64,000 nt of DNA from Pseudomonadota bacterium. Lineage in GTDB: Bacteria > Pseudomonadota > Gammaproteobacteria > UBA4575. The stretch spans positions 1,343 to 65,342 of the forward strand of contig JBCDBX010000003.1 of assembly GCA_039182865.1 (NCBI GenBank), read 5' to 3'. A program made the position numbers and the translations under genes. Below are positions 1,598 to 45,944 of the stretch, one piece after another. The notes below the pieces were generated by a model that was not told where the DNA came from, did not search any database, and worked only from the letters and a program-made list of their open reading frames with translations. Positions within the stretch are counted from its first letter, which is position 1. Each line of letters begins with the position of its first letter.

Positions 1598-1640
1598 GAT
1601 TAGGCTCAATTATTTTTTGAGCCTAATCAGCTCCTTTTTA
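1598..1640 (+). terminator. Putative intrinsic terminator / stem-loop after ahcY
   Basis: Inverted repeat GATTAGGCTCA(1598-1608) / TGAGCCTAATC(1618-1628) with a T-rich loop, followed by CTCCTTTTTA. It lies immediately 3' of the ahcY stop (1582-1584). Confidence 0.4.
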
Positions 1641-29450: not shown

Positions 29451-32400
29451 TTAGCTCGCATAGTTTTCATCTGCTAAATTTTGAATTGCTGGATAGTTTA
29501 ACTTACCTGTGCCCAGCACGGGAATTTCTTTTAACACTAAAATCTCTCTTGGCACCATCAATTCACTGCCACCGCGTTGTGAAAAATATTCTTGTATAGA
29601 CTTCCTATCAGCATACTGTTGGGTCGTGACCAATATTAATTTTTCACCTTTTCGCTCATCTGACACTGCACATACACAGTGCTGTTCATGCGGCCACAAA
29701 GCACCAATCCAGCCTTCAACTTGCGTTAAAGAAATCATCTCACCGCCAATTTTCGCAAATCGTTTAGCTCGGCCCAGTATAGTAAGAAAGCCCTCATTAT
29801 CAATATCGACAATGTCACCCGTATCATGCCAACCTTCACTAGGGGGCTGAAGAATTCCTGGTTTATCCGCCTTTAGGTAACCCAACATGATATTGCAGCC
29901 ATTCACAAACAGTCGCCCTCCATGATCAATACCCGGTACACTTTCTAACTTTGCATTGATACCAGGAAATAAGCGCCCAACTGATCCCTCTTTATAATGG
30001 CTGTAGTTATTAATGCTAAGCGCAGGTGAGGTTTCGGTGACGCCGTAGCCCTCAAATATTCGTACGCCAAATTTTGCCATCCACTTTTCTCGAGTCGATT
30101 GCTTTAACTTTTCAGCACCTGCAATCACATAACGGGTAAATTGAAAGTCTTCGTTATCACCATGTTTAGCGTAACCGCTAAGAAAGGTATCCGTACCAAA
30201 TATCACCGTCGTTTGAGTGTCATAGACTAGCTCCGGCACTATTTTATAATGCAGTGGTGAAGGATATAAAAATGTTCTAATTCCACATGAGATAGGCAAC
30301 ACTAGCCCTACTCCAAGACCAAATGAATGAAATACGGGCAAAGCATTAAAAAAACGATCCCTAGATGAAAAGTCTAAGCATGCCCTGACTTGTGCTTGAT
30401 TCGATAACAAATTTTTATGACTTAATACTACACCTTTGGGAGTGCCCTCTGAGCCTGAAGTAAATAATACAACTGCTGCATCTTCCGGTCTGCGTTGCTT
30501 AGTAAATATCCCCCATTTAGTTTTAGCTTTAAATAAGCCGACAAGTTTATCTACAAGACCAATACTCTGTTTTACATCCTCAAGATAAACTAAATTGACT
30601 TTTTGCTTGAGACTTTCTTCTAAGACTTCAAGCTGTGCCAATTCAATAAACTTGCGCGAGGTTAATACGGTTTTTATTTCTGCTGTTTCTATCGCCGATA
30701 AAACACTATCTTTACCTGCAGTAAAATTAAGCATTGCTGGCACAGCACCAATATTTTGTAGCGCATAAAAAGTGACAGCTGTCGGAATTGCATTGGGCAA
30801 TAAGACCCCTGTATTTTCACCAGATTCTGCATATCGACTCAAGCTTCTACCTAATACAATAGATCCCAAAAGCAGCTTATTCAATGTAATAGGGTTACGC
30901 TGAATATCATCTAATATTTCAAAATTTCCACCCTTTAACTTAATAGAGTCTGTTAGTACACGAAATAAAGTGGTATCAGTATTTGTTGTCTGATATATAC
31001 AATCAGTCATCACATCATAAACGACTCTGCGTAATGCACGCTTCTTTGCCTCGCCATGTAAATCCCGGGAGATATTAATTTCTGCTGGCGGACAGATTGT
31101 TATAGTGATCTTTGGGAGTACTCTTTGCTTAACCAGACCTTTGAGTCTTCCAAATCCCGTGAGATGAGCACCATCGATTCTTACAGGGATAAATTTTGCT
31201 CTACCTAATTCGGCTATTTTTCCTGGGCCTTCGTAAATCTTCATTAGACTACCCGTATTAGTGATGCGACCTTCTGGAAAAATAACAACTCTCCTACCAT
31301 CGCGAAGCATCTTAATTAAGCTTTTGATTGCCATTGGCTGGGAAGAATCCAAAGGGAACATCTCAAAAAATTGAGTGAATATTTTAACCCACCATCTTTT
31401 ATTAACATCTGTGTTAATCGCAAACACAGGCATATCAGGCAAATAGCTCATCAACAAAGGTCCATCTAAAAAAGAAGTATGATTAGAGACAATCACATAA
31501 TGACCTTTATCATTGGGATAATTCTCTAATCCCCGAACATCTACCCTATATAAAAGTTTAAATAGTATTCGTCCAAAAGTTTTCATTGAATCACTAGGAA
31601 TAATTTTCATAATGAATAACGCTACCAAAAAATTAAGTATTGCCAACATCCAAAATAAATCTGGGATAGTAAATCCTTGTTTCAAAACTAAGATAACAAG
31701 AATAGAAGCCATCACCATAAACAAGGCATTTGAAATGTTATTCGCAGCGACAGTCCTTGAGCGACGTTTGTTTTCGACTCGTTTTTGTAAAAGCGTATAT
31801 AGAGGAACGATATAAAATCCCGCCGATACCGCCAACACCAACATGTCAATGAATGCACGCCAATGTTGTGGATGTTTTATGAATTCATTTAAAGTGTAAT
31901 GAGCATTAGGACTAGAATGCTGTGATATTTGCTCACTTGCCAAATACAAATCGAGACTAAATATTGACATCAGTATCGCTGCCAATGGTACATACCTAGC
32001 ACTGATATCACCTTTTAAAATTCGGCTACACAATAGCGAACCGATGCCTATACCTATAGTAAACATCACCAATGCAAAAACTGCCACATCCTCGTTGCCA
32101 TGATATACATCAGCAATAAGAGGATTAATCTGCGACTGCATCACATATCCCAAAAACCAGAACCAAGATATGCCGAAAATTAATCGTTTAATGTCCCAAC
32201 GATCAGTTCCTAATTTATAAATATCATAAGTTTGTTTAAAGACATTGGCACTTAGGTGTATAGAGGGATTAGCACTTACCAACTTTGGAATTAAAAAACT
32301 AATTGACCATCCTAATCCCGCGCACACAAGAAGGACAATTGCTATATTTTTTGAGCCTTCATTACCTAAGATTAATAAACCGCCAACAATAGTTCCCAAT

Positions 32401-32873
32401 AATATTGATAAGAAAGTACCCGCTTCAATTAAAGCATTACCCGATAGCAGTTCTTTATCTTTAAGCAATTCTGGAAGAATTCCGTATTTAGAAGGACCAA
32501 ATAACGCAGACTGCAAACCTGTTAACATTAAGCACATAAATAAAAGGACTACATCATCTTTCATAAATGCATATGCTGCAGTTAAAAGTACTAGCATTTC
32601 AAATGCTTTGATGTAACGAATTAGGCGATTCTTTTCATACTTATCAGCTAAAAGACCACCAAATGCAGAAAAAAGAAAGAAAGGCAGAATAAACAAGCCT
32701 GCAGCTGCCATGTTTAATATAGATGCTTGCATACCTAGCTCTGTTGCAAACTTATATGTGATCAAAATCAGCAGTGCTGATTTAAAAACATTATCAGTAA
32801 ATGCACCTAGAAATTGCACGCAAAACATTGGCGCAAATCGCTTGGTAAAAAGTAAAAAGAATAATTGACTCAC
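29451..32873 (-). CDS. aas: Tri-domain lysophospholipid transporter LplT / 2-acyl-GPE acyltransferase / acyl-ACP synthetase fusion (Aas)
   Basis: 1140 aa. The N-terminal MFS region is colinear with LplT (VQFLGAFTDN...). The middle is a PlsC-like acyltransferase (VIVSNHTSFLDGP). The C-terminus is an AMP-binding acyl-ACP synthetase (TSGSEGTPKGVVLSH...). Confidence 0.8.
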   Translation of the reverse strand: MSQLFFLLFTKRFAPMFCVQFLGAFTDNVFKSALLILITYKFATELGMQASILNMAAAGLFILPFFLFSAFGGLLADKYEKNRLIRYIKAFEMLVLLTAAYAFMKDDVVLLFMCLMLTGLQSALFGPSKYGILPELLKDKELLSGNALIEAGTFLSILLGTIVGGLLILGNEGSKNIAIVLLVCAGLGWSISFLIPKLVSANPSIHLSANVFKQTYDIYKLGTDRWDIKRLIFGISWFWFLGYVMQSQINPLIADVYHGNEDVAVFALVMFTIGIGIGSLLCSRILKGDISARYVPLAAILMSIFSLDLYLASEQISQHSSPNAHYTLNEFIKHPQHWRAFIDMLVLAVSAGFYIVPLYTLLQKRVENKRRSRTVAANNISNALFMVMASILVILVLKQGFTIPDLFWMLAILNFLVALFIMKIIPSDSMKTFGRILFKLLYRVDVRGLENYPNDKGHYVIVSNHTSFLDGPLLMSYLPDMPVFAINTDVNKRWWVKIFTQFFEMFPLDSSQPMAIKSLIKMLRDGRRVVIFPEGRITNTGSLMKIYEGPGKIAELGRAKFIPVRIDGAHLTGFGRLKGLVKQRVLPKITITICPPAEINISRDLHGEAKKRALRRVVYDVMTDCIYQTTNTDTTLFRVLTDSIKLKGGNFEILDDIQRNPITLNKLLLGSIVLGRSLSRYAESGENTGVLLPNAIPTAVTFYALQNIGAVPAMLNFTAGKDSVLSAIETAEIKTVLTSRKFIELAQLEVLEESLKQKVNLVYLEDVKQSIGLVDKLVGLFKAKTKWGIFTKQRRPEDAAVVLFTSGSEGTPKGVVLSHKNLLSNQAQVRACLDFSSRDRFFNALPVFHSFGLGVGLVLPISCGIRTFLYPSPLHYKIVPELVYDTQTTVIFGTDTFLSGYAKHGDNEDFQFTRYVIAGAEKLKQSTREKWMAKFGVRIFEGYGVTETSPALSINNYSHYKEGSVGRLFPGINAKLESVPGIDHGGRLFVNGCNIMLGYLKADKPGILQPPSEGWHDTGDIVDIDNEGFLTILGRAKRFAKIGGEMISLTQVEGWIGALWPHEQHCVCAVSDERKGEKLILVTTQQYADRKSIQEYFSQRGGSELMVPREILVLKEIPVLGTGKLNYPAIQNLADENYAS

Positions 32874-32985
32874 TACTTATAATCCTGTATTTCTACAACT
32901 CGTTATAAATATTTTCTAGTTAAAACTATTATGGCACGGATCAATCAAGCTTAATATATAAGTATACGATTTGTAGGAGAAAGCT

Positions 32986-33297
32986 ATGCATGCTGTAACT
33001 AACCGGGTATTTGTTCATCCTGATTGGCATAAAGAATTTGAACAACGCTTTCAGAAGCGTGCAGGACAAATTGATAAACAAAATGGCTTTAAGCGTATGC
33101 AAATTTTACGGCCATGCTCAGATGATGCGCCATATCTAGTTTATACAGAGTGGGAAAATGAAGATGCTTTTAAGTCATGGGTAGGAAGCGAAGACTTTAA
33201 GATTGCTCATCAGAATCCTATGCCTGAGGAAGCCTTTTCAGGGAAAGGTGGACTTGAGCAACATACTGTAATTATTTCTACTGAGAAGGCCAATTAA
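32986..33297 (+). CDS. Antibiotic-biosynthesis-monooxygenase (ABM) domain protein
   Basis: 103-aa ferredoxin-like fold pattern typical of small ABM proteins. Confidence 0.5.
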   Translation: MHAVTNRVFVHPDWHKEFEQRFQKRAGQIDKQNGFKRMQILRPCSDDAPYLVYTEWENEDAFKSWVGSEDFKIAHQNPMPEEAFSGKGGLEQHTVIISTEKAN

Positions 33298-33363
33298 TAA
33301 GACTTTAACTACAACTTATTCATTAAGATTATAAATTTAATTCATTGAAATATTTGCTGGATT

Positions 33364-36300
33364 TTACTTATAGCTATTCAGAAGACTACGCATTGTATTG
33401 GTATCAAATTTAATACGTAATTTTGCAAATGGTCCATCAGCTGTATATTCGGCACCACTGAAGTCATCGTCCTCAAACCCATCAAAATTATATCCAAGAC
33501 TCACCCAAACATTTTGATAAACATTGACACCTACCGATGGGCCAAATGAATATCTAAAGTTCTCAGAGTTGCTTGAATTCAAAATAGAGGTTTGGAAAGA
33601 AAGGTCAACACGACGATGAATATCATAACGATATCTAAAACCAAGTAATTGAGTAAAACCATCAAACTCATCACCATCGATATCATCAAGCACATATTTG
33701 GCACCCCAATGTATGCCTAATTGATGCAGATCATCAACAGTATAATTTAAGTTAAGATTATTAATTAGTGATCTTGAACGAATATCTAATGAATCACTTA
33801 CATCTTCACTAAATGAAAATTCTAAACGATTTAATATCGTATATGGACTATGGTCAGGTCTAAACGCAAGTGCATATGTCGCATCAGCAGTAACATTATT
33901 GCCACCGCCTTTTGTATCTGTTTCAAATATCTGAGTATCAAACGACATGCCTAAGCCTGTAAACTCTTCGCTATAGAGACCAAACAAGACACCGCGTTGT
34001 ATATCTGTGTCACTGGTACGATACTCCATCCTAGACGCTGCCGACCAATTTGTTTGCACATAATTCGCACCAAGAGAAAGCGCAGTAAAATCACCTGACA
34101 CACTTCCTGATGATAATGGAACGTTGTCATTAAATGGTGTTACACCCTCATCATTCAATGTATCCAATCTGTCAACACTGACATCTAATGACAAATGATC
34201 GTTGTATTGCCAGCCTTGCGTCAAACCCAAATTACTAAACAAGCGTTTTCCATTCTCACCTGATTGCTGTTCTACACTGGTATTAATTTCAGCCTGACTC
34301 CAAGGAATTAAACGTGTTCCAATCCGTGTTGTATTGGTATCCTGATCTTCACCTTGGGTATACTCATGTTCAGTAAATAATTCAGAAATTTCATTTAATT
34401 TATAATCCGCACCTGCAATATAACGTGTAGGATAATCAACAGAGTTGTCTGAGTTTACATCTATCTCGGCATTGGCACGCAAATTAAGTCTATTATCCAT
34501 TAACCTCTTTGCAGCTCCTGCGGTAACGAGTACAGATTCTCTATCTTCCTGTTGTGATAATTCATCTTTTGCATATGCCAAACCGGCAGCAAGACCATAT
34601 CCATTTTTATTATAGTTGAGCTCAACGTCTGCAACCGTACGTTTATTATTGTCAGATAAAACCTCATCACGAAATGCCTGACCATTGACTTCTACTGATT
34701 CATTAACACGATATCTCAGATCTGCACCATATCGTTCAGCACCATCATTGTTCTGACTTTGTTGATCTAAACCAAACCCTTCATCTTGCCTGCGGTAATA
34801 CACCAATGTATTGATTTTTTCTGTGCGGTGTTCTACTTCGGCCAATAACGCATCATTATTTTCATCACCATCTCCTGTATCAACACTACTGCGTGCTGCC
34901 TCTAAACGTACTTGAGTCTGCTCAGAAACGTTATATTCAAAATCTGCGCCAATAAGATCACCATCGGCATCTTCATCGCCCTGAGTAATAGCACTGATTC
35001 CGACTTCTATGCCGCGCTCTTTATCATATAAAGCAGCACGAATTCCGGCAGTTAATTCCTTATCTCCAGAGTTCTCTACTTCATAATCTGCAACAATAAA
35101 AACTGGATTAAAGTTTTGGTCGCGACTTGGGATCGGCTGTTTAAAGAATATCGTGCCATTATTAGTATCAATCGTGTAATCAACAAATTGTGTCAGTTGC
35201 ACATCACTGATAATTATATTGGGCTGAAATCTATCGCGTGTCACAATTGATACCTGCTCACTATTAATCACAATATCATTGTTCGATAACTGATATAGCC
35301 CCGAGGTACCATTCCCTTGAATTTCATCTTGCACAAATCTTTGATCGGTTTCAGACGCAAATGCATTAAAGCCAAATCGATTCCCCTCATATTCTGCTTT
35401 AGCGCCCGTTAAACTTCGTGTATATCTAGAGAGTTCTGTCACATCCATGTCTGTATTAAAATCACCAAATAAAGTATAAAACTGATTCTTCTCAAGTCTT
35501 ACATATAGCTTATCAGAGCTTGCGGCATCAAATTGTTGTTCAGTCGCATCTCCATAAAGCGTGTAATATTCATCTGGTGCGATTGTTTGGAATAACCTGT
35601 CATCTCTCTCGTCATCTCCACGTTCAGAGTCATAAGCCAGTGTCAACAACCATTCACCTTTAACCTGACCTTTGGCATAAAAGGCTAGGCGACCATCCTC
35701 ATAAAAATCTTCTTCAATATTATTATCACTTAAAGCACGCGCATTGCCAGAGACATTGTTATAACCTGTAGACCCCTCTGCAAGTCCAACTAAGATCCAT
35801 TCTTTTTGGACAGCTTGAATCCATGCATCTATAGATTCTTCTCGATCGTCAATAAATAAAAAATCTAGCGTTAGCTTACCGCCTAAAGTTGAAGGTTCAA
35901 TATCGATAAATGCGATACCATCTTGCTCAACTTTATATGTCAATCTACTAGAAGTAAGGCCATTCAAAGGTTGTTTGTCTAGCTCTCTTGTCTCTTGAAG
36001 CGACGTATAACCTTGAGAAAGTCCGTATTCGCCAATGATTTCTGGGCGTGCAGGGTAACCCCATTTGTCGAAAAACTTGACGGCAAGAACAATGGGGTTC
36101 TTACCATCTGCGATCAACCTTGAATATTCCGGAACTAACTGTGCTTTAATAGGCTGTCCAGAATAATGTATTGTTTGAGTAACCTGCTCCAACTGAATAT
36201 CATCTTCGCTATACGTGGTAGCAACAAAAACATTATCACCCTCTACAAGATCAACACCCTTCCAGCGATCAATTAATTTCTTCTTATCAGAACTAGTCGT

Positions 36301-39300
36301 TCTAGAATCAAAATTAAGTGCACTGACTTCTTTACCATTAAGCTCTAATTTTAGTTTTGTATTTACAGCACGCTTAATCTCAATCTGTATCGCGTTGATA
36401 AAAGGATTATAATTATCTCTGGGTGATAACCATTGCAATGAGTCATCCTGCTGATTCAACCATGTGACTGTAAACTCTGCTTCTTCAGCAACTGGCAAAC
36501 TCTCCCTTGGATGTACATAGTCACCAATCAACTCGTGTTTATTTAATAACTCTTGCTCACTCTTGTTGTTAGTGTTTCTGACAAATTTATCATCACCATC
36601 GATGATTATAGTATTCTCGATCACAGGAGATTGTGAGTTCAAGTTGCCCTCATGGTCATAAGTTAGCAAAAACTCTGTTTTATATTCACCATTAGCAAGA
36701 GATGGCATTTTTGCACTCAGTTCTAACACATACGTCCAATCACTGGTTTGTGGCACTCCAAGACTTATATTCAATGTCCCAAATAAGTTTCTCGCTTCAT
36801 AACCACTTTTACCATTCACCTTTATACTATCTTGAATAAATTTAAACTCACTAGGCAATATCACACTCGCATTAATATTACCTAAAGGCTGTTGTATACC
36901 TTGTAGCGTCATCGTATATCTAACTAGATCATTAAGTACTACACTATCAATCTGGGTATGTAATTTTCCTTTTTCTGGTGGTTTTTCTTTTAAGTAAAAA
37001 TTTGAACGCCATAACAATCCTGCATCGATATCCGCAAACTGTGACATCTTTGAACCGGCAGTACGCGTATTTTGCACACATTCTTGTATTTCTAGATGAT
37101 TAGGTATACTACTAGGATCAATTTGAATAACATGTGTCCCTGGCTCTAGCCCTTCAAAGTGGTACATCCCTCTTTGGTCTGTTAATACATATCGGCCATC
37201 TTCTAAAACCAAGCGTATCCCCTCAACGCCTTTCATTGTTGGTATGCCAACGAACTTAACTCTACCCTTGGCTTTTGATTTTTTAACAAATAGTTTTTTA
37301 CTTTCGCTATCTGATGAAGAATTAAATGTGTATATCGTATTAATAATATCGTAATGACTCTCAAATTTAGCTTCTGATTCACTTACTTTTAAATAGGCTT
37401 CAATAACGTACTGACCAGTTTTCTCGTTGCTCACTTTAGTACTAAATGTGAGTCTTATAGAATCTAGCTGTGTATCACTTCCTAAAATATATTTAAGGCT
37501 ACCTGATTGTATAATTGGCTCTGATATTTTCTTGTTATTCAATTCTGAGGAATCTGGAACATAGCTAAGGCCATCTGGTAAGTTGAAATTAACCTCAATT
37601 GGATAATCTAGGTTCGGTAACTTTGAGATGCTTAATTCATTAAGTAATTTATCGCCAACTTTTTCAGTCAACATGTGATAAGTAGCACTCCCATAATCAA
37701 TTTTATTTTCATTTTTACATGTCCCCTCAGTGACGGTACCAATCAAGAAACTCTTTGAAGAAATCAAATCATCTTGTACATCAACGACGGCTTGCGCATC
37801 TCTAGATCTGAACCCAACAGAATCTGTAGCAAATACAGTATTTATAGCATTACCAAACGGAGTACCTGAAGAAACTTCTACAACATATTTAACTGTAACG
37901 GTCTCACCCGATGGGATATCGCCCAATGCAATAGTAATCGAAGTGCCATTATTGGCAATATTAGGATCTGCTTGCTTAACGCTATCGAATTGCAAAGAGT
38001 CTTTTTGATATCTAAAGCCAGTAGGTAGAGAATCTAAAAGATTTACGTCAATAGCTGAATTACTTGAATTGTTGTTAGTGACTGTGATCTGGTACTGCAA
38101 AAAGTCTCCAATGCCGACAACGTCTTTTGAAGCTTGTTTACTAACAAAAAGTACATCACTGATTGGGTCAATAGGAATATCAACATGTAGTGGCGGACCA
38201 ACGACTAATGGAAAATCCAATCCAAATGATGCATTAGCATCTAGAGAAAACGGAGCATTTGGTAATGTTTGTAAGGTTGCGATGCTGACGGTAGATGGAA
38301 TAACAAAATCATCGGCCGTGACTTCAAGTCTATATGTACCCGCTGCAACGAATGGAAACCGATATTCACCCGCAGCAAATGTAAAAGTTGCACCCGAACC
38401 ATCTGTCACATCATTACCGGTGACCATGGTTGAAGGATATGAAATTGTTCCAGCAGGATCTGAAAATACTGTTGCGGGTAAACCTGTTATCGCATCAATC
38501 AATGTGATAGTAAGTCCACTTACAGGCGCACCATTGTCACTGCTGAAGACAATACCGAATGGATCAATAAGTACTCTTTCTGATGCAGCATCAGTTACAT
38601 CAAAAGCATCTATATAATCTATTGTAATCGTATCACCCGATTCAACCGCAAACTGGCAGTCAAATATAGCAATTGGTGTTTCTACTGTTTGGATAAAGCC
38701 AACAAATTCGCCTGTATTATTCCCTGTTTCCATCAACTCAATGACTTCACGGTCATTAGTTGCATCTGAGCTGATGTTAATTACAAGCAGATCTGGAATA
38801 TTTATATCAAAGTTTCTGTTGGCGTCAGTGACCTTGATAAAAATAGGATTGCCGCTGCTAATCGAAGGAGCCGGCAATAAATTAACTGGGTTTGAAATAT
38901 CTATCGTACCTACTAATGGATAAGTTGGATTTGGCAATGGTGTGAATGTGCCTGTGTTTCCAACACTACAACCTGTTGGCGAAACATCACCATTAAGACC
39001 ATCCCCATTTGGTGAAAATTGTAATATCTCAAGAGTGGCGTCACTAAATATTATTGATGTTGTAACATCAACCGTATTGGAATTTCGAGTTTGCGGCGTA
39101 GCAGATACATCATAATTTGCAACCGCAGTGTTAGAAATGACGGTACCAGGTGGTACCGCAAAGAGAGTGTTTGAAGAAGAAATAAACAAAAAAACAGCAC
39201 ACAATAAAAGCAGTAAAGCCTGTTGTACTTTAAAGTATTCAACAGGCTTGATGGCTTTTTTATTTGCCTTCCGCGCACACTCATGACACGGATATTGTCT

Positions 39301-39318
39301 AGTTGCAGTCCTTTGCAT
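33364..39318 (-). CDS. Giant secreted DUF11-domain protein with Ig-like/carboxypeptidase-regulatory-like repeats and a roughly 700-aa C-terminal predicted outer-membrane beta-barrel
   Basis: 1984 aa. Long N-region then hydrophobic core ...ALLLLLCAVFLFISSSNTLFA|VPPGTVISNTA. DUF11-like segment GDFLQYQITVTNNNSSNSAIDVNLLDSLPTGFRY. CarbopepD_reg-like GVEGIRLVLEDGRYVLTDQRGMYHFEGLEPGTH. The C-terminal third is Y/G/D/N-rich with alternating amphipathic strands ending ...FAKLRIKF. Confidence 0.65.
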   Translation of the reverse strand: MQRTATRQYPCHECARKANKKAIKPVEYFKVQQALLLLLCAVFLFISSSNTLFAVPPGTVISNTAVANYDVSATPQTRNSNTVDVTTSIIFSDATLEILQFSPNGDGLNGDVSPTGCSVGNTGTFTPLPNPTYPLVGTIDISNPVNLLPAPSISSGNPIFIKVTDANRNFDINIPDLLVINISSDATNDREVIELMETGNNTGEFVGFIQTVETPIAIFDCQFAVESGDTITIDYIDAFDVTDAASERVLIDPFGIVFSSDNGAPVSGLTITLIDAITGLPATVFSDPAGTISYPSTMVTGNDVTDGSGATFTFAAGEYRFPFVAAGTYRLEVTADDFVIPSTVSIATLQTLPNAPFSLDANASFGLDFPLVVGPPLHVDIPIDPISDVLFVSKQASKDVVGIGDFLQYQITVTNNNSSNSAIDVNLLDSLPTGFRYQKDSLQFDSVKQADPNIANNGTSITIALGDIPSGETVTVKYVVEVSSGTPFGNAINTVFATDSVGFRSRDAQAVVDVQDDLISSKSFLIGTVTEGTCKNENKIDYGSATYHMLTEKVGDKLLNELSISKLPNLDYPIEVNFNLPDGLSYVPDSSELNNKKISEPIIQSGSLKYILGSDTQLDSIRLTFSTKVSNEKTGQYVIEAYLKVSESEAKFESHYDIINTIYTFNSSSDSESKKLFVKKSKAKGRVKFVGIPTMKGVEGIRLVLEDGRYVLTDQRGMYHFEGLEPGTHVIQIDPSSIPNHLEIQECVQNTRTAGSKMSQFADIDAGLLWRSNFYLKEKPPEKGKLHTQIDSVVLNDLVRYTMTLQGIQQPLGNINASVILPSEFKFIQDSIKVNGKSGYEARNLFGTLNISLGVPQTSDWTYVLELSAKMPSLANGEYKTEFLLTYDHEGNLNSQSPVIENTIIIDGDDKFVRNTNNKSEQELLNKHELIGDYVHPRESLPVAEEAEFTVTWLNQQDDSLQWLSPRDNYNPFINAIQIEIKRAVNTKLKLELNGKEVSALNFDSRTTSSDKKKLIDRWKGVDLVEGDNVFVATTYSEDDIQLEQVTQTIHYSGQPIKAQLVPEYSRLIADGKNPIVLAVKFFDKWGYPARPEIIGEYGLSQGYTSLQETRELDKQPLNGLTSSRLTYKVEQDGIAFIDIEPSTLGGKLTLDFLFIDDREESIDAWIQAVQKEWILVGLAEGSTGYNNVSGNARALSDNNIEEDFYEDGRLAFYAKGQVKGEWLLTLAYDSERGDDERDDRLFQTIAPDEYYTLYGDATEQQFDAASSDKLYVRLEKNQFYTLFGDFNTDMDVTELSRYTRSLTGAKAEYEGNRFGFNAFASETDQRFVQDEIQGNGTSGLYQLSNNDIVINSEQVSIVTRDRFQPNIIISDVQLTQFVDYTIDTNNGTIFFKQPIPSRDQNFNPVFIVADYEVENSGDKELTAGIRAALYDKERGIEVGISAITQGDEDADGDLIGADFEYNVSEQTQVRLEAARSSVDTGDGDENNDALLAEVEHRTEKINTLVYYRRQDEGFGLDQQSQNNDGAERYGADLRYRVNESVEVNGQAFRDEVLSDNNKRTVADVELNYNKNGYGLAAGLAYAKDELSQQEDRESVLVTAGAAKRLMDNRLNLRANAEIDVNSDNSVDYPTRYIAGADYKLNEISELFTEHEYTQGEDQDTNTTRIGTRLIPWSQAEINTSVEQQSGENGKRLFSNLGLTQGWQYNDHLSLDVSVDRLDTLNDEGVTPFNDNVPLSSGSVSGDFTALSLGANYVQTNWSAASRMEYRTSDTDIQRGVLFGLYSEEFTGLGMSFDTQIFETDTKGGGNNVTADATYALAFRPDHSPYTILNRLEFSFSEDVSDSLDIRSRSLINNLNLNYTVDDLHQLGIHWGAKYVLDDIDGDEFDGFTQLLGFRYRYDIHRRVDLSFQTSILNSSNSENFRYSFGPSVGVNVYQNVWVSLGYNFDGFEDDDFSGAEYTADGPFAKLRIKFDTNTMRSLLNSYK

Positions 39319-39325
39319 TAATGAG

Positions 39326-39350
39326 ATGCGCGGACTTCATGTCCGCGCAT
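39326..39350 (-). promoter_or_regulatory. GC-rich perfect hairpin in the 5' leader of the giant gene (intercistronic between genes C and D)
   Basis: ATGCGCGGAC-TTCAT-GTCCGCGCAT: 10-bp stem, 5-nt loop, 8 nt upstream of the annotated ATG at 39318. Anomalously GC-rich for this genome. Confidence 0.4.
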
Positions 39351-39380
39351 TCCTAAACTTAGGAGTTGTTACATTATTTA

Positions 39381-40439
39381 CTACTGAATGACTGCATCAA
39401 ATGTAACAGTACACGTGGCACTAGCAGCGATAGTAATAGAATTTACTGTCACTGTATTACCTGCAGATGCATCCACAGCACCAGCACAGTTTGTATCAGT
39501 AATGTCAACACTTGGTAGGCTTAATACAAGTTCAGGATTCGGAACTGTGTCAGAAATACTAACATCTGTAACAGAGGATGAACCCTGATTTTCAATAGCG
39601 ATTGTATAGGTCACTGTTGCACCAGGAACAGCTTTATGATTAACACCATCATTTGTAACGCCTGGAGCACTCGCAGTTGTGGCTACTGTTTTCTGAACGA
39701 TCAGACCAGCAATTGTATATCGCACTTCTGAAGATGATACTAAGCCATCTTCAACCGCATCAGAACTAGCAGTATTAGTAGCTACATCAGTATTTTCACC
39801 ATCTGCAAATACAATCTCCACTGTAGTCGGATCATCAACGCTACCGCCATCATCTGAACCTAATGCAGAGCCTGCGCCATCTGATGCTTCCAGTGTCCAG
39901 TGAACTGCGGCTTCATCACTATTTGTTGAACCTGCTAAAATAGCAAGTGCAAATACTGTTTTTGTTTCATCTTCAAGCAAGTTTACTTCAGTAATGACTG
40001 TTTCAGTGCCCTCAAAAGTTCCATTGCCATCATCTTCATAAAATGTCACTGAAGATAAATCTAAATCGTCACCTGAGCTGAAATCAAGATAATTAAGCAA
40101 AAAATCCTGGGTACCGTTACCTGTATTAGTAACAGTTAAAATCACTAAATCGCCCACGGAGGCAGTCGCACCCGGCGCTGCGGGTGATGCAGTGATTGAC
40201 ATATCGATTAATTCATCGACGAGGAATCTTGTTGCATCATTATCTGCCGCAGTAGAGGGATCATCGGATAGAATTGGTGATTGTGCAGTTCCACCCACTG
40301 AGTAGCTGATGGTGGCCTGATTATCTACAGGTGTAGATTCATCTGTGCCCACCGCAAACGATTGTGTATTTAAGATTAATCCAGATAGGACGAATCCTAT
40401 ACATAGCTTAAATACATTCCTTGTATGTAAAATTTTCAT
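39381..40439 (-). CDS. Secreted two-domain DUF11-like beta-sandwich protein (C)
   Basis: 352 aa with a signal peptide and Thr/Ser/Asp/Gly-rich sequence. C-terminal DUF11-like PGATVTYTIAIENQGSSSVTDVSISDTVPNP. The N-terminus after the signal peptide is related to those of A and D. Confidence 0.6.
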   Translation of the reverse strand: MKILHTRNVFKLCIGFVLSGLILNTQSFAVGTDESTPVDNQATISYSVGGTAQSPILSDDPSTAADNDATRFLVDELIDMSITASPAAPGATASVGDLVILTVTNTGNGTQDFLLNYLDFSSGDDLDLSSVTFYEDDGNGTFEGTETVITEVNLLEDETKTVFALAILAGSTNSDEAAVHWTLEASDGAGSALGSDDGGSVDDPTTVEIVFADGENTDVATNTASSDAVEDGLVSSSEVRYTIAGLIVQKTVATTASAPGVTNDGVNHKAVPGATVTYTIAIENQGSSSVTDVSISDTVPNPELVLSLPSVDITDTNCAGAVDASAGNTVTVNSITIAASATCTVTFDAVIQ

Positions 40440-40474
40440 CTAATGTACTCCTTTACGTTTAAAAATATTCTTAA

Positions 40475-40990
40475 TTATTTAAGAACAACTCTATATTCAA
40501 CGGTCCCTTCATCACCTTTTTCTAATTGGCCACGATAAGTCCATCGTATATTTGTATAGTCCTCCGCTTCGATTGCTCTTTCCTTACCTTGATCATCTTT
40601 CACTTTTAAATTCGCTGTACCGTGAAAAGATTCTCCATTATCAACTGAATACTCAATCACTGTATTCTTACCAGCGGCACTGCCAACTTTAAATATTGTG
40701 AATTGCGGAATTGGATTACTTATCACAATATCTGTCGCTGGTTCTTCACCGCTATATTTGAATGTTGTCGTGTAAATAACTTCATCGCCGGGTACGACTT
40801 TGCCAGCTGGAACTCTTTTGATGACATCATTTCCATTTTTATCTTTAGCCAAGACTTCCATTTCAACAACATTAGTCAAAGCAATTGGCTGAATAGCATC
40901 AGCCATCACTGTATTGATTACGCTTGAAAACAAGCAAATGAGTATTACGTTAATTAATCTCTTACTTTCTAAAATCATATGAATCTCCAA
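40475..40990 (-). CDS. Secreted single-domain DUF11-like protein (B)
   Basis: 171 aa with a signal peptide (…SSVINTVMA|DA) and one DUF11-like domain (PGDEVIYTTTFKYSGEEPATDIVISNPIP). Confidence 0.55.
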   Translation of the reverse strand: MEIHMILESKRLINVILICLFSSVINTVMADAIQPIALTNVVEMEVLAKDKNGNDVIKRVPAGKVVPGDEVIYTTTFKYSGEEPATDIVISNPIPQFTIFKVGSAAGKNTVIEYSVDNGESFHGTANLKVKDDQGKERAIEAEDYTNIRWTYRGQLEKGDEGTVEYRVVLK

Positions 40991-40993
40991 TCT

Positions 40994-42019
40994 TTAGTTA
41001 ATAACGACATTGAATGTAATGGTGTGATTATCCGCATTAGTTAAATCTCCTAAATTTACTGTTATGACATTTGCAGCGATAAAGCCTGCATCAGCATCTA
41101 CACTTGAATCTGTCAATGGAATTCCATTCAAAGTGATACTGCTTGGTTCATAGGTTGTATCTGTAGGTATAGCATCGGTGATGACGACATTTGCAGCTGT
41201 GTCTATACCGCTTGCAACGACATCTAATGAATATTGAATTATTGCGCCCGGGATGGGGCTACATGGAGCTGTGGTACATGACCCTCCACCAGCTGTATCG
41301 TCAATGACTTGTGCGTTTTTAGTAATATTTACATCAATCAATGATGCGACTTCGTATGTCCCTGGGGTATCGACAGATGCTTCAGTTAAACCAACCAAGG
41401 CATCAACACCACCGTCACCCAACCCAACTAAGATAGTCCCAGGTGTTGAACCTGCTGCACCCGCAGTTGTTGCATTAGCAGTTATTTCTATCAGGCCCTC
41501 ATCACCGTCAATAAGCGCTGGAGGAATATCACCAACAATAAAAATTACTTGGCTATCTACACCATTTGCATCAAGTGATACATCATTGAGGGCGGGGATA
41601 TGCTCAACATCGATACCACCCGTATCAAATACGCCATTGTTATTACTATCAATGAAAATTCTTAAATTTGTAGGATCAAAATCATCAGTTCCTATTGGTG
41701 ATGCATCAAATGCAAAAGAAAATTCTTCTATACCATTTCCAATATTAGTAACCAGAAATGTAAGCACTTGATCTAAACTGGAAGTCAAGACAAGAACATT
41801 TGAGGCATCTTGTGAAACTAAGTTTACGTCAATAATTTCTTGCACAGAGAAGACGACTGTATCAGTCGAAGTTTGTGGTGACCCATTCTGGTTATATTCC
41901 ACCGTGACAGTATTACTTATCACTGTGCCGGCAGGAGTTCCTAAGGCATATGCAGCATTATTGATTGCTATTAAAAATAGACTAATATTTATTAGATTCT
42001 GAACTATTGAGTGACGCAT
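40994..42019 (-). CDS. Secreted two-domain DUF11-like beta-sandwich protein (A), first gene of the operon
   Basis: 341 aa. Signal peptide (…NNAAYA|LGTPAGTVISNTVTVEY) and C-terminal DUF11-like domain (PGAIIQYSLDVVASGIDTAANVVITDAIPTDTTY). Confidence 0.6.
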   Translation of the reverse strand: MRHSIVQNLINISLFLIAINNAAYALGTPAGTVISNTVTVEYNQNGSPQTSTDTVVFSVQEIIDVNLVSQDASNVLVLTSSLDQVLTFLVTNIGNGIEEFSFAFDASPIGTDDFDPTNLRIFIDSNNNGVFDTGGIDVEHIPALNDVSLDANGVDSQVIFIVGDIPPALIDGDEGLIEITANATTAGAAGSTPGTILVGLGDGGVDALVGLTEASVDTPGTYEVASLIDVNITKNAQVIDDTAGGGSCTTAPCSPIPGAIIQYSLDVVASGIDTAANVVITDAIPTDTTYEPSSITLNGIPLTDSSVDADAGFIAANVITVNLGDLTNADNHTITFNVVIN

Positions 42020-42462
42020 GTATGTCTTGATTAACTTAATCTTCGTTTAAAGTTATTTTTATAAATAATTAATCTCATTTCGTAGCTAATGAAAATCTTT
42101 GATGAAATGATGCCTCAAATTCTCAAAATCGCATTAGCGTATACTTCTTTATTTTTCAGTGCTTTAGTGCCATATTTACCGCCAAAGCATTTGAGCCGAG
42201 CATAGAGATGTGGACTAACATTTGTTACCGCAGAATGGTTGAGATGGGGAAATAAGACGATATGATGCACCGTCAAGATAATGGCGAGCTGTTTTCTGAT
42301 TATAATCACCTATTTGATTAAGCCATATAATCCATGATGATCTAACTATCTGCTTTAACTGAGAAACATTTCCTTTTACTTATAAAAAGAAAATATTGGC
42401 TATTTGGAGTAGATTTCCTCGCCTATATAAATTTCATTTATGATTGACTATCCCAAAACATA

Positions 42463-42852
42463 GTGAATACAAAACTGAAAAACTATTTACTGATATTTGC
42501 AGGTTGGCTATCAATCATCTTAGGTGTTATTGGCGTGGTCGTTCCATTATTACCAACGACACCCTTTATATTATTGGCGGCTGCCTGTTTTGCTAAATCA
42601 TCACCCAAATTTCATCATTGGCTGATAACACATAAATTTTTTGGGCCTATCATTAAAAATTTCCAAAACGGAGAGGGATTACCGAAAAAGACTAAAATCA
42701 AAATTATTATTTTTATCTGGGTTGCGTTAAGTATCTCTATGTTTGCGCTCTCTAATCTTTGGATAACTTTAATTTTGGTGATGATTGGATTATTTGGAAC
42801 GGCTCATATTTTAAGAACCCCTACATCTGAGAGAGAACTCACTAATTCATAA
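42463..42852 (+). CDS. DUF454 (YbaN-like) inner-membrane protein
   Basis: 129-aa membrane protein with GVVVPLLPTTPFILLAAACFAKSSP, typical of DUF454. Confidence 0.65.
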   Translation: MNTKLKNYLLIFAGWLSIILGVIGVVVPLLPTTPFILLAAACFAKSSPKFHHWLITHKFFGPIIKNFQNGEGLPKKTKIKIIIFIWVALSISMFALSNLWITLILVMIGLFGTAHILRTPTSERELTNS

Positions 42853-44509: not shown

Positions 44510-44968
44510 ATGAGACAAGCCCACGCACATAAACAATGTATTACCAATGCGCTCGAGCGTGCTGATCGGATCTGTCTCCAAAATGGGAAAAGACTAACTC
44601 CTACGCGCAAGAGAGTATTAGAATTAATTTGGCAAAGTCATAAACCTATCAAAGCTTATGATTTATTGGCACAGTTAAGTACAGGCGATCATTTAGAAAA
44701 ACCTCCCACCGTATACCGTGCTTTAGATTTTTTATTAGATAACAATTTAATACATAAAATTGAAAGTACCAATAGTTACATTGGTTGTGAATATGAACAT
44801 ACAGAGAATGATAGTAAATTTTTTATTTGCGATATTTGTAATGAGGTCAAAGAGCTTGATGAACCCAAACTAAATAAGACATTAGAAGAAGCTAGCAGCA
44901 AACAGGGGTTTAAACCAAATCAAACAAAAGTTGAAATACATGGCACATGTGCCAAATGTTCTGACTAG
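44510..44968 (+). CDS. zur: Zinc uptake regulator (Fur family)
   Basis: KPPTVYRALDFLLDNNLIHKIESTNSY is near-identical to the E. coli Zur DNA-binding region. C-terminal CDIC...C..C metal site. Confidence 0.8.
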   Translation: MRQAHAHKQCITNALERADRICLQNGKRLTPTRKRVLELIWQSHKPIKAYDLLAQLSTGDHLEKPPTVYRALDFLLDNNLIHKIESTNSYIGCEYEHTENDSKFFICDICNEVKELDEPKLNKTLEEASSKQGFKPNQTKVEIHGTCAKCSD

Positions 44969-44970
44969 TC

Positions 44971-45390
44971 ATGCAGATTTTATTAGATCGTTTTGCGATT
45001 TTACTTTCTGGCTTGTGCGCAATTCATTGTATCGCATTACCTATAATGGCAGCTATCTTACCAATACTATCTACTACCTATCATCATGGAAACCAGTTAC
45101 ATGAATTTTGGTTCCACCAATTCATTCTGTATTTTATAGTTCCTGTAAGCATCATTGCTTTAGTATCTGGCTATCGTTCACATAAGAAATTGCTTCCCAT
45201 AGTGATTGCATCTATTGGCTTATTAATATTATCAGTAACTGCATTATTTATTGACCAATTACTCATGCGTCATGTTATTTCTCATGACGGTGAAATGCTC
45301 ATGACGCTTACAGGAGGAATAATTCATGCAACGGGTCATATTCTGAACTTACAAGCAACTAGGAAGTCACACCAACCATGCAAAGTATAA
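44971..45390 (+). CDS. MerC-like small membrane protein (putative metal transporter)
   Basis: 139 aa, 4 TM, N-terminal LSGLCAIHCIALP cysteine-containing helix. Translationally coupled to zur (3-nt gap). Confidence 0.45.
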   Translation: MQILLDRFAILLSGLCAIHCIALPIMAAILPILSTTYHHGNQLHEFWFHQFILYFIVPVSIIALVSGYRSHKKLLPIVIASIGLLILSVTALFIDQLLMRHVISHDGEMLMTLTGGIIHATGHILNLQATRKSHQPCKV

Positions 45391-45944
45391 AATCTTTTTT
45401 TACTATAGTACTCTTATTACTATCAACGATCCTTATTGCCAGTGAAGATCATCATGATCACGACCATGACCATGGATTTGAACAACATGCAGCCCATGTA
45501 CATGGTCAAGCAACAGCTAACATCTCTTATGAAAATAATATACTCAATATAGCATTTAGCTTTCCAGCTATCGATATTTATGGATTTGAACATGCCGCTA
45601 AAACAAATGAAGAAGTCCAGGCTATAGATAACGCACTTTCTTTGTTTCGTGATAGCAGTAATATATTAGTTATGACACCTGAGTGTGAACATGAATCACA
45701 TGATCACGATCACTCTACTAGTCATGACGATGAGGATGGACACCATGAGCATGAAGAGCTAGAACATAGTGATGTTGAAGTAAGCTACGAATTCAAGTGT
45801 GACACAAAATCACCCATTAAAATTAAATTTGTATTATTCAATAGCTTCACAAGTTTAGAAGAAATTAATGTACAATTTATCTCAGATAATATGCAACAGT
45901 TATTTAATGTAACCTCCAACAACCAGACTATTACAATCAATTAA
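45378..45944 (+). CDS. zrgA: ZrgA-like periplasmic His-rich zinc-binding protein (DUF2796)
   Basis: Signal peptide, then EDHHDHDHDHG... and ECEHESHDHDHSTSHDDEDGHHEHEE His/Asp runs. First gene of a zrgABCD-like unit. Confidence 0.6.
   Translation: MQSIKSFFTIVLLLLSTILIASEDHHDHDHDHGFEQHAAHVHGQATANISYENNILNIAFSFPAIDIYGFEHAAKTNEEVQAIDNALSLFRDSSNILVMTPECEHESHDHDHSTSHDDEDGHHEHEELEHSDVEVSYEFKCDTKSPIKIKFVLFNSFTSLEEINVQFISDNMQQLFNVTSNNQTITIN

Follow-up and report, generated by a model that had tools for sequence, protein, structure and literature searches.

The operon formed by genes A, B, C, and D appears, on balance, to encode a surface fibre that would be built by inter-subunit beta-hairpin complementation and would be extruded through, and tethered to, the outer-membrane barrel of D. 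This proposal is drawn from sequence and structure prediction alone. The operon lies in a stretch of 64,000 nucleotides from a Pseudomonadota bacterium, which is referred to as the window. A first-pass annotation had proposed an undescribed surface-fibre or adhesin system at this locus. All of the tests that were run agree with it, and we infer the surface location and the formation of a fibre. No paper describing the four-gene system was found in the literature. The present analysis adds the N-terminal hairpin (tag) that is common to A, C, and D and the truncation of the C-terminal domains (catchers). It also adds a putative tag/catcher assembly logic and a fifth, variable tip-adhesin gene that is usually present in such loci and is missing from the window.

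The four genes are co-directional on the minus strand (Table 1). ORF calling gives gaps of 3, 35, and 62 bp, as had been annotated. B is listed with a TTG start, but its start is probably the ATG at 40978, four codons downstream. The flanks had been said to encode only an ABM monooxygenase and a DUF454 protein, and these were found at 32986-33297 and 42463-42852, respectively. Further out lie genes for an Aas-like fusion and a DjlA-like protein, together with a Zur/ZrgA/ABC zinc cluster. The neighbours of the operon encode neither an usher or chaperone nor a sortase or secretion ATPase, which bears out the earlier statement that no known assembly machinery is nearby.

Table 1. Features of the operon, with positions in the window.
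Feature	Position	Strand	Description
Gene A, 341 aa	40994..42019	(-)	Signal peptide, N-terminal hairpin, Ig-like domain 1, truncated CLIPPER domain
A 26-60	41840..41944	(-)	Beta-hairpin tag (LGTPAGTVISNTVTVEY...TDTVVFSVQ); conserved Asn36, codon 41912-41914
A 217-341	40997..41371	(-)	CLIPPER domain truncated after strand 7 (catcher); PF01345 stops at profile position 82/114
A Lys234	41318-41320	(-)	Codon inside catcher; sole Lys of mature A
A Asp282	41174-41176	(-)	Codon inside catcher
Gene B, 171 aa from TTG	40475..40990	(-)	Signal peptide and single truncated CLIPPER-like domain
Gene C, 352 aa	39381..40439	(-)	Full-length paralogue of A
C 29-77	40209-40355	(-)	Hairpin; hairpin HMM E 2.8e-9
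C 236-352	39384-39734	(-)	Truncated CLIPPER domain with Lys250; PF01345 29.2 bits, ends at profile position 83/114
Gene D, 1984 aa	33364..39318	(-)	Signal peptide, hairpin tag, Ig-like array, two Ig-like domains, giant outer-membrane beta-barrel
D 55-88	39055..39156	(-)	Same hairpin tag (VPPGTVISNTAVANY...SNTVDVTT); hairpin HMM E 1.3e-10 at D 55-86
D 385-512	37783..38166	(-)	Complete CLIPPER domain with Lys394, Asp, Asn493 triad; PF01345 43.1 bits, profile 3-98/114
D 959-1154	35857..36444	(-)	Two Ig-like (Big_1-like) domains directly before barrel; AF2 strands, fragment 20-215
D 1160-1972	33403..35841	(-)	Giant beta-barrel region, ~38-40 long strands (AF2)
D 1334-1399	35122..35319	(-)	Small beta domain between barrel strands; AF2 short strands, fragment 416-453, flanked by long strands

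The annotated signal peptides were judged by eye, and plausible Sec signals with AxA-type cleavage sites are present in all four proteins (AYA↓LGT, VMA↓DAI, SFA↓VGT, and LFA↓VPP). They are of the SPase-I type, and the lipobox Cys is absent. By their profile matches, A to D are exported DUF11/CLIPPER proteins of the PF01345/TIGR01451 family. The TIGR01451 scores (A, 34.9 bits; B, 32.7; C, 38.2; D, 50.1) are all above the curated cut-off of 24, in keeping with the DUF11 segment annotated in each protein. With PF01345, C and D lie above the gathering score of 24.6 and A (21.8 bits) and B (21.0 bits) just under it. The description of all four as having very few Lys is true of A, with exactly one in the mature protein, and of C, with three. 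It does not fit B or D, which have 12 and 76.

A and C are two-domain proteins. A is the first gene in the conserved order, has 281 homologues, and is the probable shaft subunit. C matches the A-family profile over 292 columns (hhalign probability 99.4%, E 1.4e-21) and is a candidate for an adaptor subunit adjoining D. A to C adopt Ig-like CnaA/CLIPPER folds, in line with the beta-sandwich that had been annotated. Their C-terminal ends (A, ITFNVVIN; B, TFDAVIQ; C, EYRVVLK) come right after strand 7 and hold no sorting signal. At the C-termini of A and C, PF01345 is matched only up to profile position 82-83 of 114, as against 98 for the internal domain of D, and in an hhalign alignment A 334-340 falls on strand 7 of the D domain (D 476-482). 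When the domains are aligned class by class, those of the tip, A, B, and C all end at one column and the D domain runs on. Because the fold stops after strand 7, the terminal domains of A and C are without strands 8 and 9, including the Asn to which the strand-1 Lys is linked by an isopeptide in complete CLIPPER domains.

The reference for what these catchers are missing is the CLIPPER domain of D, in which the Lys-Asp-Asn triad is complete. K394, the Asp, and N493 are each at least 90% conserved. They align with K715, D748, and N806 of PDB 9ifr, and the strand-8 Asn of the D family occupies the Asn806 column. This domain also has a match to the isopeptide-domain model TIGR04226 (E 2e-5) that is below the cut-off of the model. 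The remaining reactive residues are retained in the truncated domains. All 124 of 124 domains have the catcher Lys (tip, 29/29; A, 59/59; C, 36/36), and the acid is kept in all tip, A, and C domains (Asp in 59/59 for A).

B is also without the Lys and Asp. The Lys column is T, S, or N in 46 of 51 B proteins and Lys in only five, and the acid column is Asn in 43 of 51. The hairpin was found in none of 47 B proteins with an HMM built from A alone. B is a candidate hairpin chaperone or cap.

The hairpin is located directly after the signal-peptide cleavage site in A, C, and D. AlphaFold2 predicts it in A as two 12-residue strands, 33-44 and 47-58, with a pLDDT of 93-96. The HMM built from A alone picks out the N-terminus in 60/65 A and 25/29 C ORFs and in 40/83 D ORFs, many of which are 5'-truncated. 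The hairpin Asn, 87-99% conserved (A, 52/60; C, 36/37; D, 78/79 proteins), stands within an '[I/V]-x-N-x-A' motif that resembles CLIPPER strand 8. By hhalign, A and D have non-homologous domains after the hairpin, which is therefore an independent module. An HMM of the strand 8-9 tail of the D CLIPPER domain has its best match within A or C at the hairpin in 50 of 82 cases, and weak hairpin-HMM matches within D are concentrated ~28-fold in the CLIPPER tail. A direct hhalign comparison of the hairpin with strands 8-9 is weak (P = 0.037), with an ambiguous register (strand 8 or strand 9). Appending the hairpin to a catcher raises the Pfam DUF11 score by only ~1 bit, and the reversed hairpin changes it by -1 to -2 bits.

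D is placed by sequence searches in no well-characterised family. The carboxypeptidase-regulatory-like repeat that had been noticed in it corresponds to a CarboxypepD_reg match at 305-340 (36.3 bits). Weaker matches are to SdrD_B (27.4 bits, below cut-off) and to OMP_b-brl at 1518-1663. An AlphaFold2 model of residues 940-1984 (pLDDT 83.8, pTM 0.77) agrees with the C-terminal outer-membrane barrel of the first-pass annotation, though not with its size of ~700 aa. The barrel has ~800 aa, since the long strands, counted from the DSSP strand list, span the whole of the region given in Table 1. The two Ig-like domains before it are presumably periplasmic. No stretch of the protein is more conserved than the small domain inserted among the barrel strands, in which G398, G401, L405, R422, D423, R424, D441, Y442, G449, and F453 (fragment numbering) are invariant; it is a candidate plug or gate. 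The barrel half has no PDB sequence match and no usher or autotransporter Pfam match. Among solved structures it has no close relative and only a generic likeness to large outer-membrane barrels. MtrB, SlpA, and SprA rank above FimD in Foldseek, all with TM-scores of ~0.2, and the resemblance to ushers is not specific.

Most D relatives possess an OmpA-like peptidoglycan-binding domain just upstream of the pre-barrel Ig-like domains. It is found before the conserved C-terminal half at 912-1014 in one relative (P0008) and at 850-952 in another (P0106). In these relatives, at least the middle of the protein is thus likely to be periplasmic. The D protein of the window is without this domain and has kept everything else. 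One distant D relative has a match to Big_1 (PF02369).

The D family is not rare, with 3,490 clusters at the 50% identity level and members in at least 572 species-level genomes. The A-B-C-D order recurs in Pseudomonadota, Desulfuromonadales, Nitrospirota, Lentisphaerota, and Verrucomicrobiota. It was recovered automatically in 35 of the 54 loci with enough upstream DNA, and most of the others are partial owing to ORF-calling conflicts. The loci are spread over at least five phyla and are flanked by unrelated housekeeping genes. With the order conserved across phyla and the flanks unrelated, no hidden secretion gene set travels with the operon. No sortase is encoded in the related loci. The tip gene is often present in them, and its products combine a conserved catcher domain with variable heads (L-type lectin, beta-helix, or DUF3344) and have no hairpin.

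In donor-strand exchange of chaperone-usher pili, the incomplete Ig fold of one subunit is filled by an N-terminal extension of its neighbour, and the tip adhesin has no such extension. The distribution of the two halves resembles donor-strand exchange in its sequence pattern, with a hairpin on A, C, and D, a truncated acceptor on the tip, A, and C, and no hairpin on the tip. In the proposed assembly, the hairpin of one subunit would complete the truncated domain of the next in trans. The chain would then be tip <- (A/C)n <- D, with the tip at the distal end. The conserved Lys, Asp, and Asn could form a spontaneous intermolecular isopeptide in the manner of SpyTag/SpyCatcher. B would reversibly bind free hairpins as a chaperone or cap against premature or in-cis closure. 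The barrel of D would be the conduit for folded subunits, usher-like in function, and the N-terminal hairpin of D would capture the final subunit, so that growth stops and the fibre is held at the outer membrane. If the D hairpin is always close by, the resulting fibres might be very short. In most D relatives, the internal OmpA-like domain would additionally fix the fibre to peptidoglycan.

A broader claim can be put forward only tentatively. The operon may represent a new class of diderm pilus, a covalent fibre joined by tags and catchers without a sortase, with B as a dead-catcher chaperone and D as both pore and covalent anchor. If so, the modelled barrel of D would be the largest single-chain outer-membrane barrel known.

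A and C could instead be self-contained, circularly permuted CLIPPER monomers, although this is rather unlikely. The hairpin of each would close its own C-terminal domain with an intramolecular isopeptide. A and C would be accessory or cargo proteins secreted through D or docked on it, and D, autotransporter-like in topology, would work as a giant adhesin by itself. In agreement with this, intramolecular Lys-Asn bonds are the only CLIPPER chemistry that has been demonstrated experimentally (PMC12617251), and the direct similarity tests of the hairpin against strands 8-9 are weak. The AlphaFold2 monomer of A is compact and very confident with the hairpin included (pLDDT 91.7, pTM 0.72). Such a model would allow the hairpin of A to close the catcher of the same chain in cis, which counts against joining in trans; closed in this way, A and C could be monomers. 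However, the tip keeps both Lys and acid in all 29 catchers and has no hairpin, and D keeps the hairpin with its Asn but lacks a truncated domain. Such unpaired halves can be understood only if joining is in trans. A purely cis model also leaves no function for B, a catcher whose two reactive residues are replaced. The AlphaFold2 monomers of chaperone-usher pilins also self-complement. A comparison for self-complemented monomers is provided by the 'closed' TafA model (PMC11821415).

It is less likely still that the N-terminal motif is a targeting signal like the TPS domain of two-partner secretion. Its periplasmic receptor would be either B or the Ig-like domains of D (B and the pre-barrel domains are both plausible in this role), and it would direct A, C, and the N-terminal region of D through the barrel, yielding soluble or loosely attached matrix or adhesin proteins. 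In every protein whose passage through the barrel this reading requires, the motif is right at the mature N-terminus, and the early barrel and its inserted domain are the most conserved part of D, as expected of a gate. However, the tip proteins, which most clearly need export, do not have the motif. Neither its likeness to CLIPPER strands 8-9 nor the truncation of catchers exactly before the Asn strand, with Lys and Asp kept, is explained. The least probable arrangement is a structure within the envelope, in which a peptidoglycan-tethered D, as its relatives' OmpA-like domain would allow, spans the periplasm with its Ig array and A and C as a tether or spacer and no surface fibre is made, but the tip heads are typical of extracellular adhesins, a simple anchor would not call for a barrel of this size and its conserved inserted domain, and the D of the window has lost the OmpA-like domain alone.

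The fibre proposed here can be set beside several known systems. Chaperone-usher pili (FimD/PapC, FimC/PapD, Fim/Pap pilins) were rejected as relatives on the absence of sequence homology. The operon proteins gave no match to a PF00577 usher, a PapD-type chaperone, or a fimbrial pilin, and no usher or PapD-like protein was found in the operon or flanks. Here a two-strand hairpin is the donor, against a single strand in chaperone-usher pilins, and B is a single Ig domain of the acceptor type, unlike the two-domain, strand-donating PapD-like chaperone. The usher, which also has a plug, an NTD, and CTD1/2, has 24 barrel strands, many fewer than D, whose barrel is also fused to ~1,150 N-terminal residues starting with a subunit hairpin. 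The CnaA/CLIPPER folds with conserved Lys, Asp, and Asn suggest a covalent linkage, unlike chaperone-usher pilins. Sortase-dependent pili do not fit, as there is no sortase, LPXTG, or cell-wall anchoring and the host is a diderm. SpyTag/SpyCatcher, from the CnaB2 domain of FbaB, is a split tag/catcher pair with a covalent bond, which for the present system is suggested by the conservation pattern. No natural split CLIPPER domain used for polymerisation is known to have been described; the bonds demonstrated in CLIPPER domains are intramolecular only (PMC12617251).

Other barrel and pilus systems were also considered. Classical autotransporters (type Va) have a 12-strand PF03797 barrel, an alpha-helical linker, and a beta-helical passenger; D has no autotransporter Pfam match, and its model has ~38-40 strands preceded by Ig-like domains in place of a helix. 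In inverse autotransporters (type Ve, intimin/invasin), an N-terminal 12-strand barrel precedes the Big domains, which is the reverse of the order in D. Type V pili of Bacteroidota have lipoprotein pilins, an Arg/Lys-specific protease, and a C-terminal donor, and here there is no lipobox Cys and the donor is N-terminal. The T9SS translocon SprA (36 strands, PorV/plug partners) was rejected since T9SS genes and C-terminal sorting domains are absent. The barrel of D compares with SprA, Deinococcus SlpA (30 strands), and LptD/MtrB (26) at a TM-score of ~0.2 and 7-9% identity. D does not have the SLH domain or coiled coil of SlpA, and there are no LptE or Mtr partners.

Closer parallels in assembly are found in archaea. 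Sulfolobus threads (Saci_0406) are joined by head-to-tail donor-strand complementation without a chaperone-usher pair and also contain intermolecular isopeptide bonds, from Asn57 to the N-terminal amine, between subunits n and n+2 (PMC9715654). This bond is unlike the Lys-Asn triad of the present system. Haloarchaeal Tat-fimbriae (TafC/E/A/F) consist of a tip, an adaptor, a shaft, and a membrane anchor with a subunit-like N-terminal part (PMC11821415), the same division of labour as is proposed for the tip, C, A, and D. The archaeal filaments have other subunit folds and families, with no homology detected, and no outer membrane or barrel. The same domain family is found in the CLIPPER/DUF11 fibrillar adhesin B9T28_05395 of Acinetobacter silvestris (PDB 9ifr), in which complete domains contain an intramolecular Lys-Asn isopeptide (PMC12617251). 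The CLIPPER adhesins are single polypeptides of tandem complete repeats with a C-terminal OmpA-like anchor (PMC12617251), and many D relatives also have an OmpA-like domain. The barrel, truncated domains, shared N-terminal hairpin, and multi-gene operon are all absent from these adhesins and all present here.

If the proposed fibre is correct, it would be a further Gram-negative pilus-assembly pathway beside chaperone-usher, type IV, type V, and curli, and the first diderm pathway in which the subunits are covalently joined. Protein engineering would benefit from a natural split CLIPPER tag/catcher pair and from a natural dead catcher, and the barrel of D would probe how large a barrel BAM-dependent folding can handle. 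All five genes of the operon (tip, A, B, C, and D) are present in a cultured strain, Oceaniserpentilla sp. NBRC 116188, which makes the hypothesis directly testable. The variable lectin and beta-helix tips suggest attachment to particles, minerals, or partner cells. The lineages with the family include Woeseiaceae, Steroidobacteraceae, Desulfuromonadales, and Nitrospirota, which are abundant in sediment and soil.

Genes A, B, C and D, the four-gene minus-strand operon of the window, belong to a system that is real, widespread and uncharacterised. Its protein sequences point to a possible new class of pilus, assembled in tag/catcher fashion and possibly through covalent bonds, in which a giant barrel would double as anchor. 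The first-pass annotation had proposed an undescribed surface-fibre or adhesin system, and that proposal is supported; the tag/catcher logic sharpens it. For the A-D system, we infer all that goes past domain content and conservation.

The coordinates first assigned to the four genes, their shared strand and the gaps of 3, 35 and 62 bp were reproduced by ORF calls and translations. For B, an ATG four codons past the TTG is the likelier start. A Sec-type signal peptide with an AxA-like cleavage site was recognised by eye at each N-terminus. The DUF11-type segments held up, as all four proteins score above the curated TIGR01451 cut-off. With Pfam PF01345 (DUF11), C and D are above the gathering score and A and B slightly under it. 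The carboxypeptidase-regulatory-like repeat of D is matched by CarboxypepD_reg, and D has further matches to SdrD_B (weaker) and OMP_b-brl (weak). The claimed scarcity of lysine stands for A (one) and C (three) but not for B (12) and D (76). The flanks encode an ABM protein and a DUF454 protein, as had been stated. An Aas-like MFS/acyltransferase/acyl-ACP synthetase fusion lies beyond the former; a DjlA-like protein and then a Zur/MerC/ZrgA/ABC zinc cluster lie beyond the latter. The flanking genes include no usher, chaperone, sortase or secretion ATPase, in line with the annotation. A promoter and terminator scan of 32800-42600 gave nothing above shuffled expectation. The Aas-like fusion is of the lysophospholipid-recycling type. 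The Fur-family regulator of the zinc cluster is probably Zur, and the genes there together look like a zinc-acquisition cluster. A related locus, L001, is syntenic with the window and has the Aas-like fusion, ABM, DUF454 and the DjlA-like TerB+DnaJ gene.

Features of the window, of the proteins of its operon and of related loci (AF2, AlphaFold2)
Feature	Position	Strand	Description
Gene A	40994-42019	minus	341 aa
Gene B	40475-40990	minus	171 aa counted from TTG
Gene C	39381-40439	minus	352 aa
Gene D	33364-39318	minus	1984 aa
D 5' end beyond deposited start	39187-39318
Aas-like fusion	29451-32873	minus	1140 aa; MFS transporter (LplT-like), acyltransferase, AMP-binding acyl-ACP synthetase
Zinc cluster	44510-48454	plus	Fur-family regulator, MerC-like membrane protein, ZrgA-family zinc-uptake protein, ABC ATPase and two more ORFs
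Hairpin motif	A 27-42; C 31-46; D 56-69
Glu directly after hairpin of A	A E61 (window 41837-41839)
Domain after hairpin of D	D ~130-250 (window ~38569-38931)		D-family profile 120-216
Two Ig-like domains	D 959-1154		AF2 model
About 38-40 long strands	D 1160-1972		AF2 model
Small inserted beta domain	D ~1334-1399		AF2 model; after first few strands
OmpA-like domain in D relatives	P0008 912-1014; P0106 850-952
Tip-type genes of related loci	L016 13320-16031; L081 13164-20960; L005 12803-16216

The four proteins were used as queries against ORFs called in 81 related loci. A full-length D and no less than 4.5 kb of DNA upstream of it were available in 54 of these, and in 35 of the 54 the genes follow one another on a single strand as A-like, B-like, A/C-like and D. 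Most of the others were partial, the real gene having been displaced by an opposite-strand ORF under greedy ORF selection. By hhalign (probability 99.4%), A and C are paralogous over their full length. The genes outside the operon vary by lineage and have housekeeping functions (DinG-like helicase, TsaB, MutL, MiaA), and no set of secretion genes accompanies the operon in the related loci. The recurring downstream genes (DinG-like helicase/TsaB and MutL/MiaA) were rejected as parts of the system and represent lineage synteny.

A fifth gene, 600-2,600 aa long, occurs in many loci, where it is upstream, downstream or in divergent orientation. Its N-terminal heads vary (L-type lectin, right-handed beta-helix/NosD, DUF3344 and DUF7933/DUF7507 repeats) and its C-terminal ~170 residues are conserved. 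Variable heads on a conserved C-terminus give it the predicted architecture of a tip adhesin. Such a gene lies upstream of A in L001, and there is none in the window. Tip-type genes are upstream on the minus strand in L026, L028, L029 and L033; in several lineages the gene is not the operon's first, being downstream of D or divergent upstream. One of these genes is 2,598 aa long, and more than one may be present in some loci.

D homologues are present in at least 572 species in a scan of one genome per species. In Gammaproteobacteria they were found in Woeseiaceae, Steroidobacteraceae and Thiotrichaceae, and elsewhere in Burkholderiales, Gallionella, Nitrotoga, Desulfuromonadales, Geobacter, Desulfobacterales, Nitrospirota, Lentisphaerota and Verrucomicrobiota. 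A word-indexed homologue search with D gave a list saturated by proteins of 1,700-2,500 aa. An exhaustive phmmer search of D 940-1984 against 1.84 billion cluster representatives gave 3,490 clusters at E <= 1e-3, of which 1,444 reached E <= 1e-30. The C-terminal half (~939-1984) is the best-conserved part, with 59% identity to the nearest relative. D and the D- and A-family profiles were compared with all PDB chains; there was no match for the barrel or for A, and the sequence matches were to Ig domains only (NmSLP-like 8c8k and CLIPPER 9ifr).

D 940-1984 was modelled with AlphaFold2 from an alignment of 59 homologues (pLDDT 83.8, pTM 0.77), and its strands were counted from the DSSP list of the model. 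The first-pass annotation had read a large barrel here. Because the model is confident and has about 38-40 long strands, the C-terminus of D is treated as a predicted outer-membrane barrel of very large size that has no close relative among solved structures. Most invariant residues of the family sit in the small inserted beta domain and the adjoining strands. Any likeness of D to an usher would be functional, a likeness in role rather than a demonstrated homology. Most D relatives have an internal OmpA-like peptidoglycan-binding domain directly ahead of the conserved half. It is kept between the N-terminal Ig array and the C-terminal half in the closest relatives (58-59% identical), and it is missing from the window's D (window 36500-36700 compared with L001 12700-13200). 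The window's locus may be a reduced version of the system, since it lacks both this domain and a tip gene.

In the public record of the identical protein (AAGB35_01060, MAG Pseudomonadota bacterium, 1941 aa), translation begins 43 codons after the ATG that we use. The deposited form is probably too short, because its start falls within the hydrophobic core of the signal peptide and because the related D protein P0008 also has the longer form and its long basic n-region. Following the hairpin, D has a domain with the motif ETG..TG.FVG; its matches are domains that recur in an archaeal 'cell surface protein' of 1734 aa with solved structures (PDB 8c8k and related; best i-E 1.8e-7). D shares this Ig-like module with what is probably an archaeal S-layer protein.

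A, C and D have in common the motif GT-x-AGT-x-I-x-N-x-A-x-v-x-Y directly past the signal-peptide cleavage site. An HMM built only from A-family N-termini matched the N-termini of 60 of 65 A-like, 25 of 29 C-like and 40 of 83 D-like ORFs, many of the last being 5'-truncated. It matched none of 47 B-like ORFs and gave one spurious match in 767 other ORFs. The Asn of the motif is conserved in A (52/60), C (36/37) and D (78/79). In a confident AlphaFold2 model of A (pLDDT 91.7), the region forms a hairpin of two strands, residues 33-44 and 47-58. The domains that follow in A and D are not homologous, so the hairpin is a separate module. Two further features are invariant in 69 A-family proteins: the Glu that comes next after the hairpin (V-x-E-x-I-D-V) and, in domain 1, a TN-x-GNG motif (N92-G94-N95-G96). 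A second catalytic site, metal binding or hairpin contact are possible roles for them.

The last domain of A and C is truncated. PF01345 has had the name CLIPPER since 2025, following a crystal structure (PDB 9ifr) in which the domain has a CnaA-like Ig fold and a Lys-Asn isopeptide forms within the molecule (PMC12617251). In the last domain of A and C, the profile is matched only to position 82-83 of 114, where the protein ends; the internal domain of D is matched to position 98. The final strand of A (ITFNVVI) was aligned by hhalign to strand 7 of the D domain (VKYVVEV). Tip C-terminal domains matched the Pfam DUF11 profile weakly and over 10-66 only, and a class-wise MAFFT alignment was used instead. 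There, tip, A, C and B proteins end at one column and the D domain goes on with strands 8 and 9. An Asn in strand 8 of D aligns with Asn806 of 9ifr, which pairs with Lys715 in the isopeptide. The strand-1 Lys is present in all terminal domains of the tip (29/29), A (59/59) and C (36/36), as is the catalytic acid; in mature A, K234 is the sole lysine. B is a lone truncated domain with no hairpin, and its reactive positions are changed: Lys to Thr, Ser or Asn in 46 of 51 and the acid to Asn in 43 of 51.

The hairpin resembles the missing strands 8-9 in sequence. When the strand 8-9 tail of the CLIPPER domains of the D family was made into an HMM, its best match in A and C proteins was the N-terminal hairpin in 50 of 82, and far fewer are expected by chance given that the hairpin is ~10-20% of the sequence. 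Weak matches of the hairpin HMM in D proteins numbered 52 in the ~50-residue CLIPPER tail versus 66 in the other ~1,800 residues. An hhalign comparison of the hairpin and D CLIPPER alignments gave a weak match on the last strand (P = 0.037, ambiguous register). When the hairpin of A, C or D was appended to the catcher of A or C, the DUF11 match grew from 12-82 to 12-109 of 114; the score gain was weak, only ~1 bit versus -1 to -2 bits with a reversed hairpin.

The tip thus has a catcher (the truncated CLIPPER domain) and no tag (the hairpin), D has a tag and no truncated catcher, A and C have both, and B has a non-reactive catcher and no tag. A head-to-tail polymer is suggested because this is the spread of halves that it needs. 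The hairpin of one protein would complete the truncated domain of the next as strands 8 and 9, and the conserved Lys, acid and Asn would then probably form an intermolecular isopeptide, like engineered SpyTag/SpyCatcher. The chain order would be tip <- (A/C)n <- D. It is plausible that the barrel of D is a conduit for folded subunits. Capture of the last subunit by the D tag would end growth and anchor the fibre in the outer membrane; in most relatives, the OmpA-like domain would also link it to peptidoglycan. That domain directly precedes the pair of Ig-like domains and the start of the barrel, a position that fits a periplasmic location of this segment; the N-terminal Ig array would in that case reach the fibre via the barrel lumen. 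As a catcher unable to react, B is most readily understood as a chaperone or cap that binds hairpins reversibly. In the chief rival reading, A and C, which carry both halves, close on themselves in cis; the catcher of the tip, the tag of D and the existence of B would then be unexplained. Assembly of a fibre by complementation is, on balance, somewhat probable. The full covalent version is put forward more tentatively.

Chaperone-usher pili are closest in logic, but no PF00577 usher, PapD-like chaperone or specific fimbrial pilin fold is found in the A-D system. Gram-positive sortase pili share the fold class and putative chemistry, but the sortase and sorting signals are absent. Haloarchaeal Tat-fimbriae have a similar division of labour, with tip, adaptor, shaft and an anchor with a subunit-mimicking N-terminus (PMC11821415), and Sulfolobus threads combine strand complementation and isopeptides as proposed here (PMC9715654); neither is homologous to the A-D system. 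The CLIPPER fibrillar adhesin that is the source of 9ifr (B9T28_05395) is a single chain of complete repeats. It was rejected as a D-family member, having tandem CLIPPER repeats and a C-terminal OmpA anchor and no barrel. No description of the operon or the D family was found in the full-text literature open without subscription. A cultured strain, Oceaniserpentilla sp. 4NH20-0058 (NBRC 116188), has all five genes of the operon, and its proteins show the tag and catcher pattern described above. The locus is at positions 85981-110082 of contig BAABWE010000005.1 (GCA_040371755.1), with genes of 338, 382 and 1215 aa among its members. The tag/catcher model is therefore directly testable in this strain.
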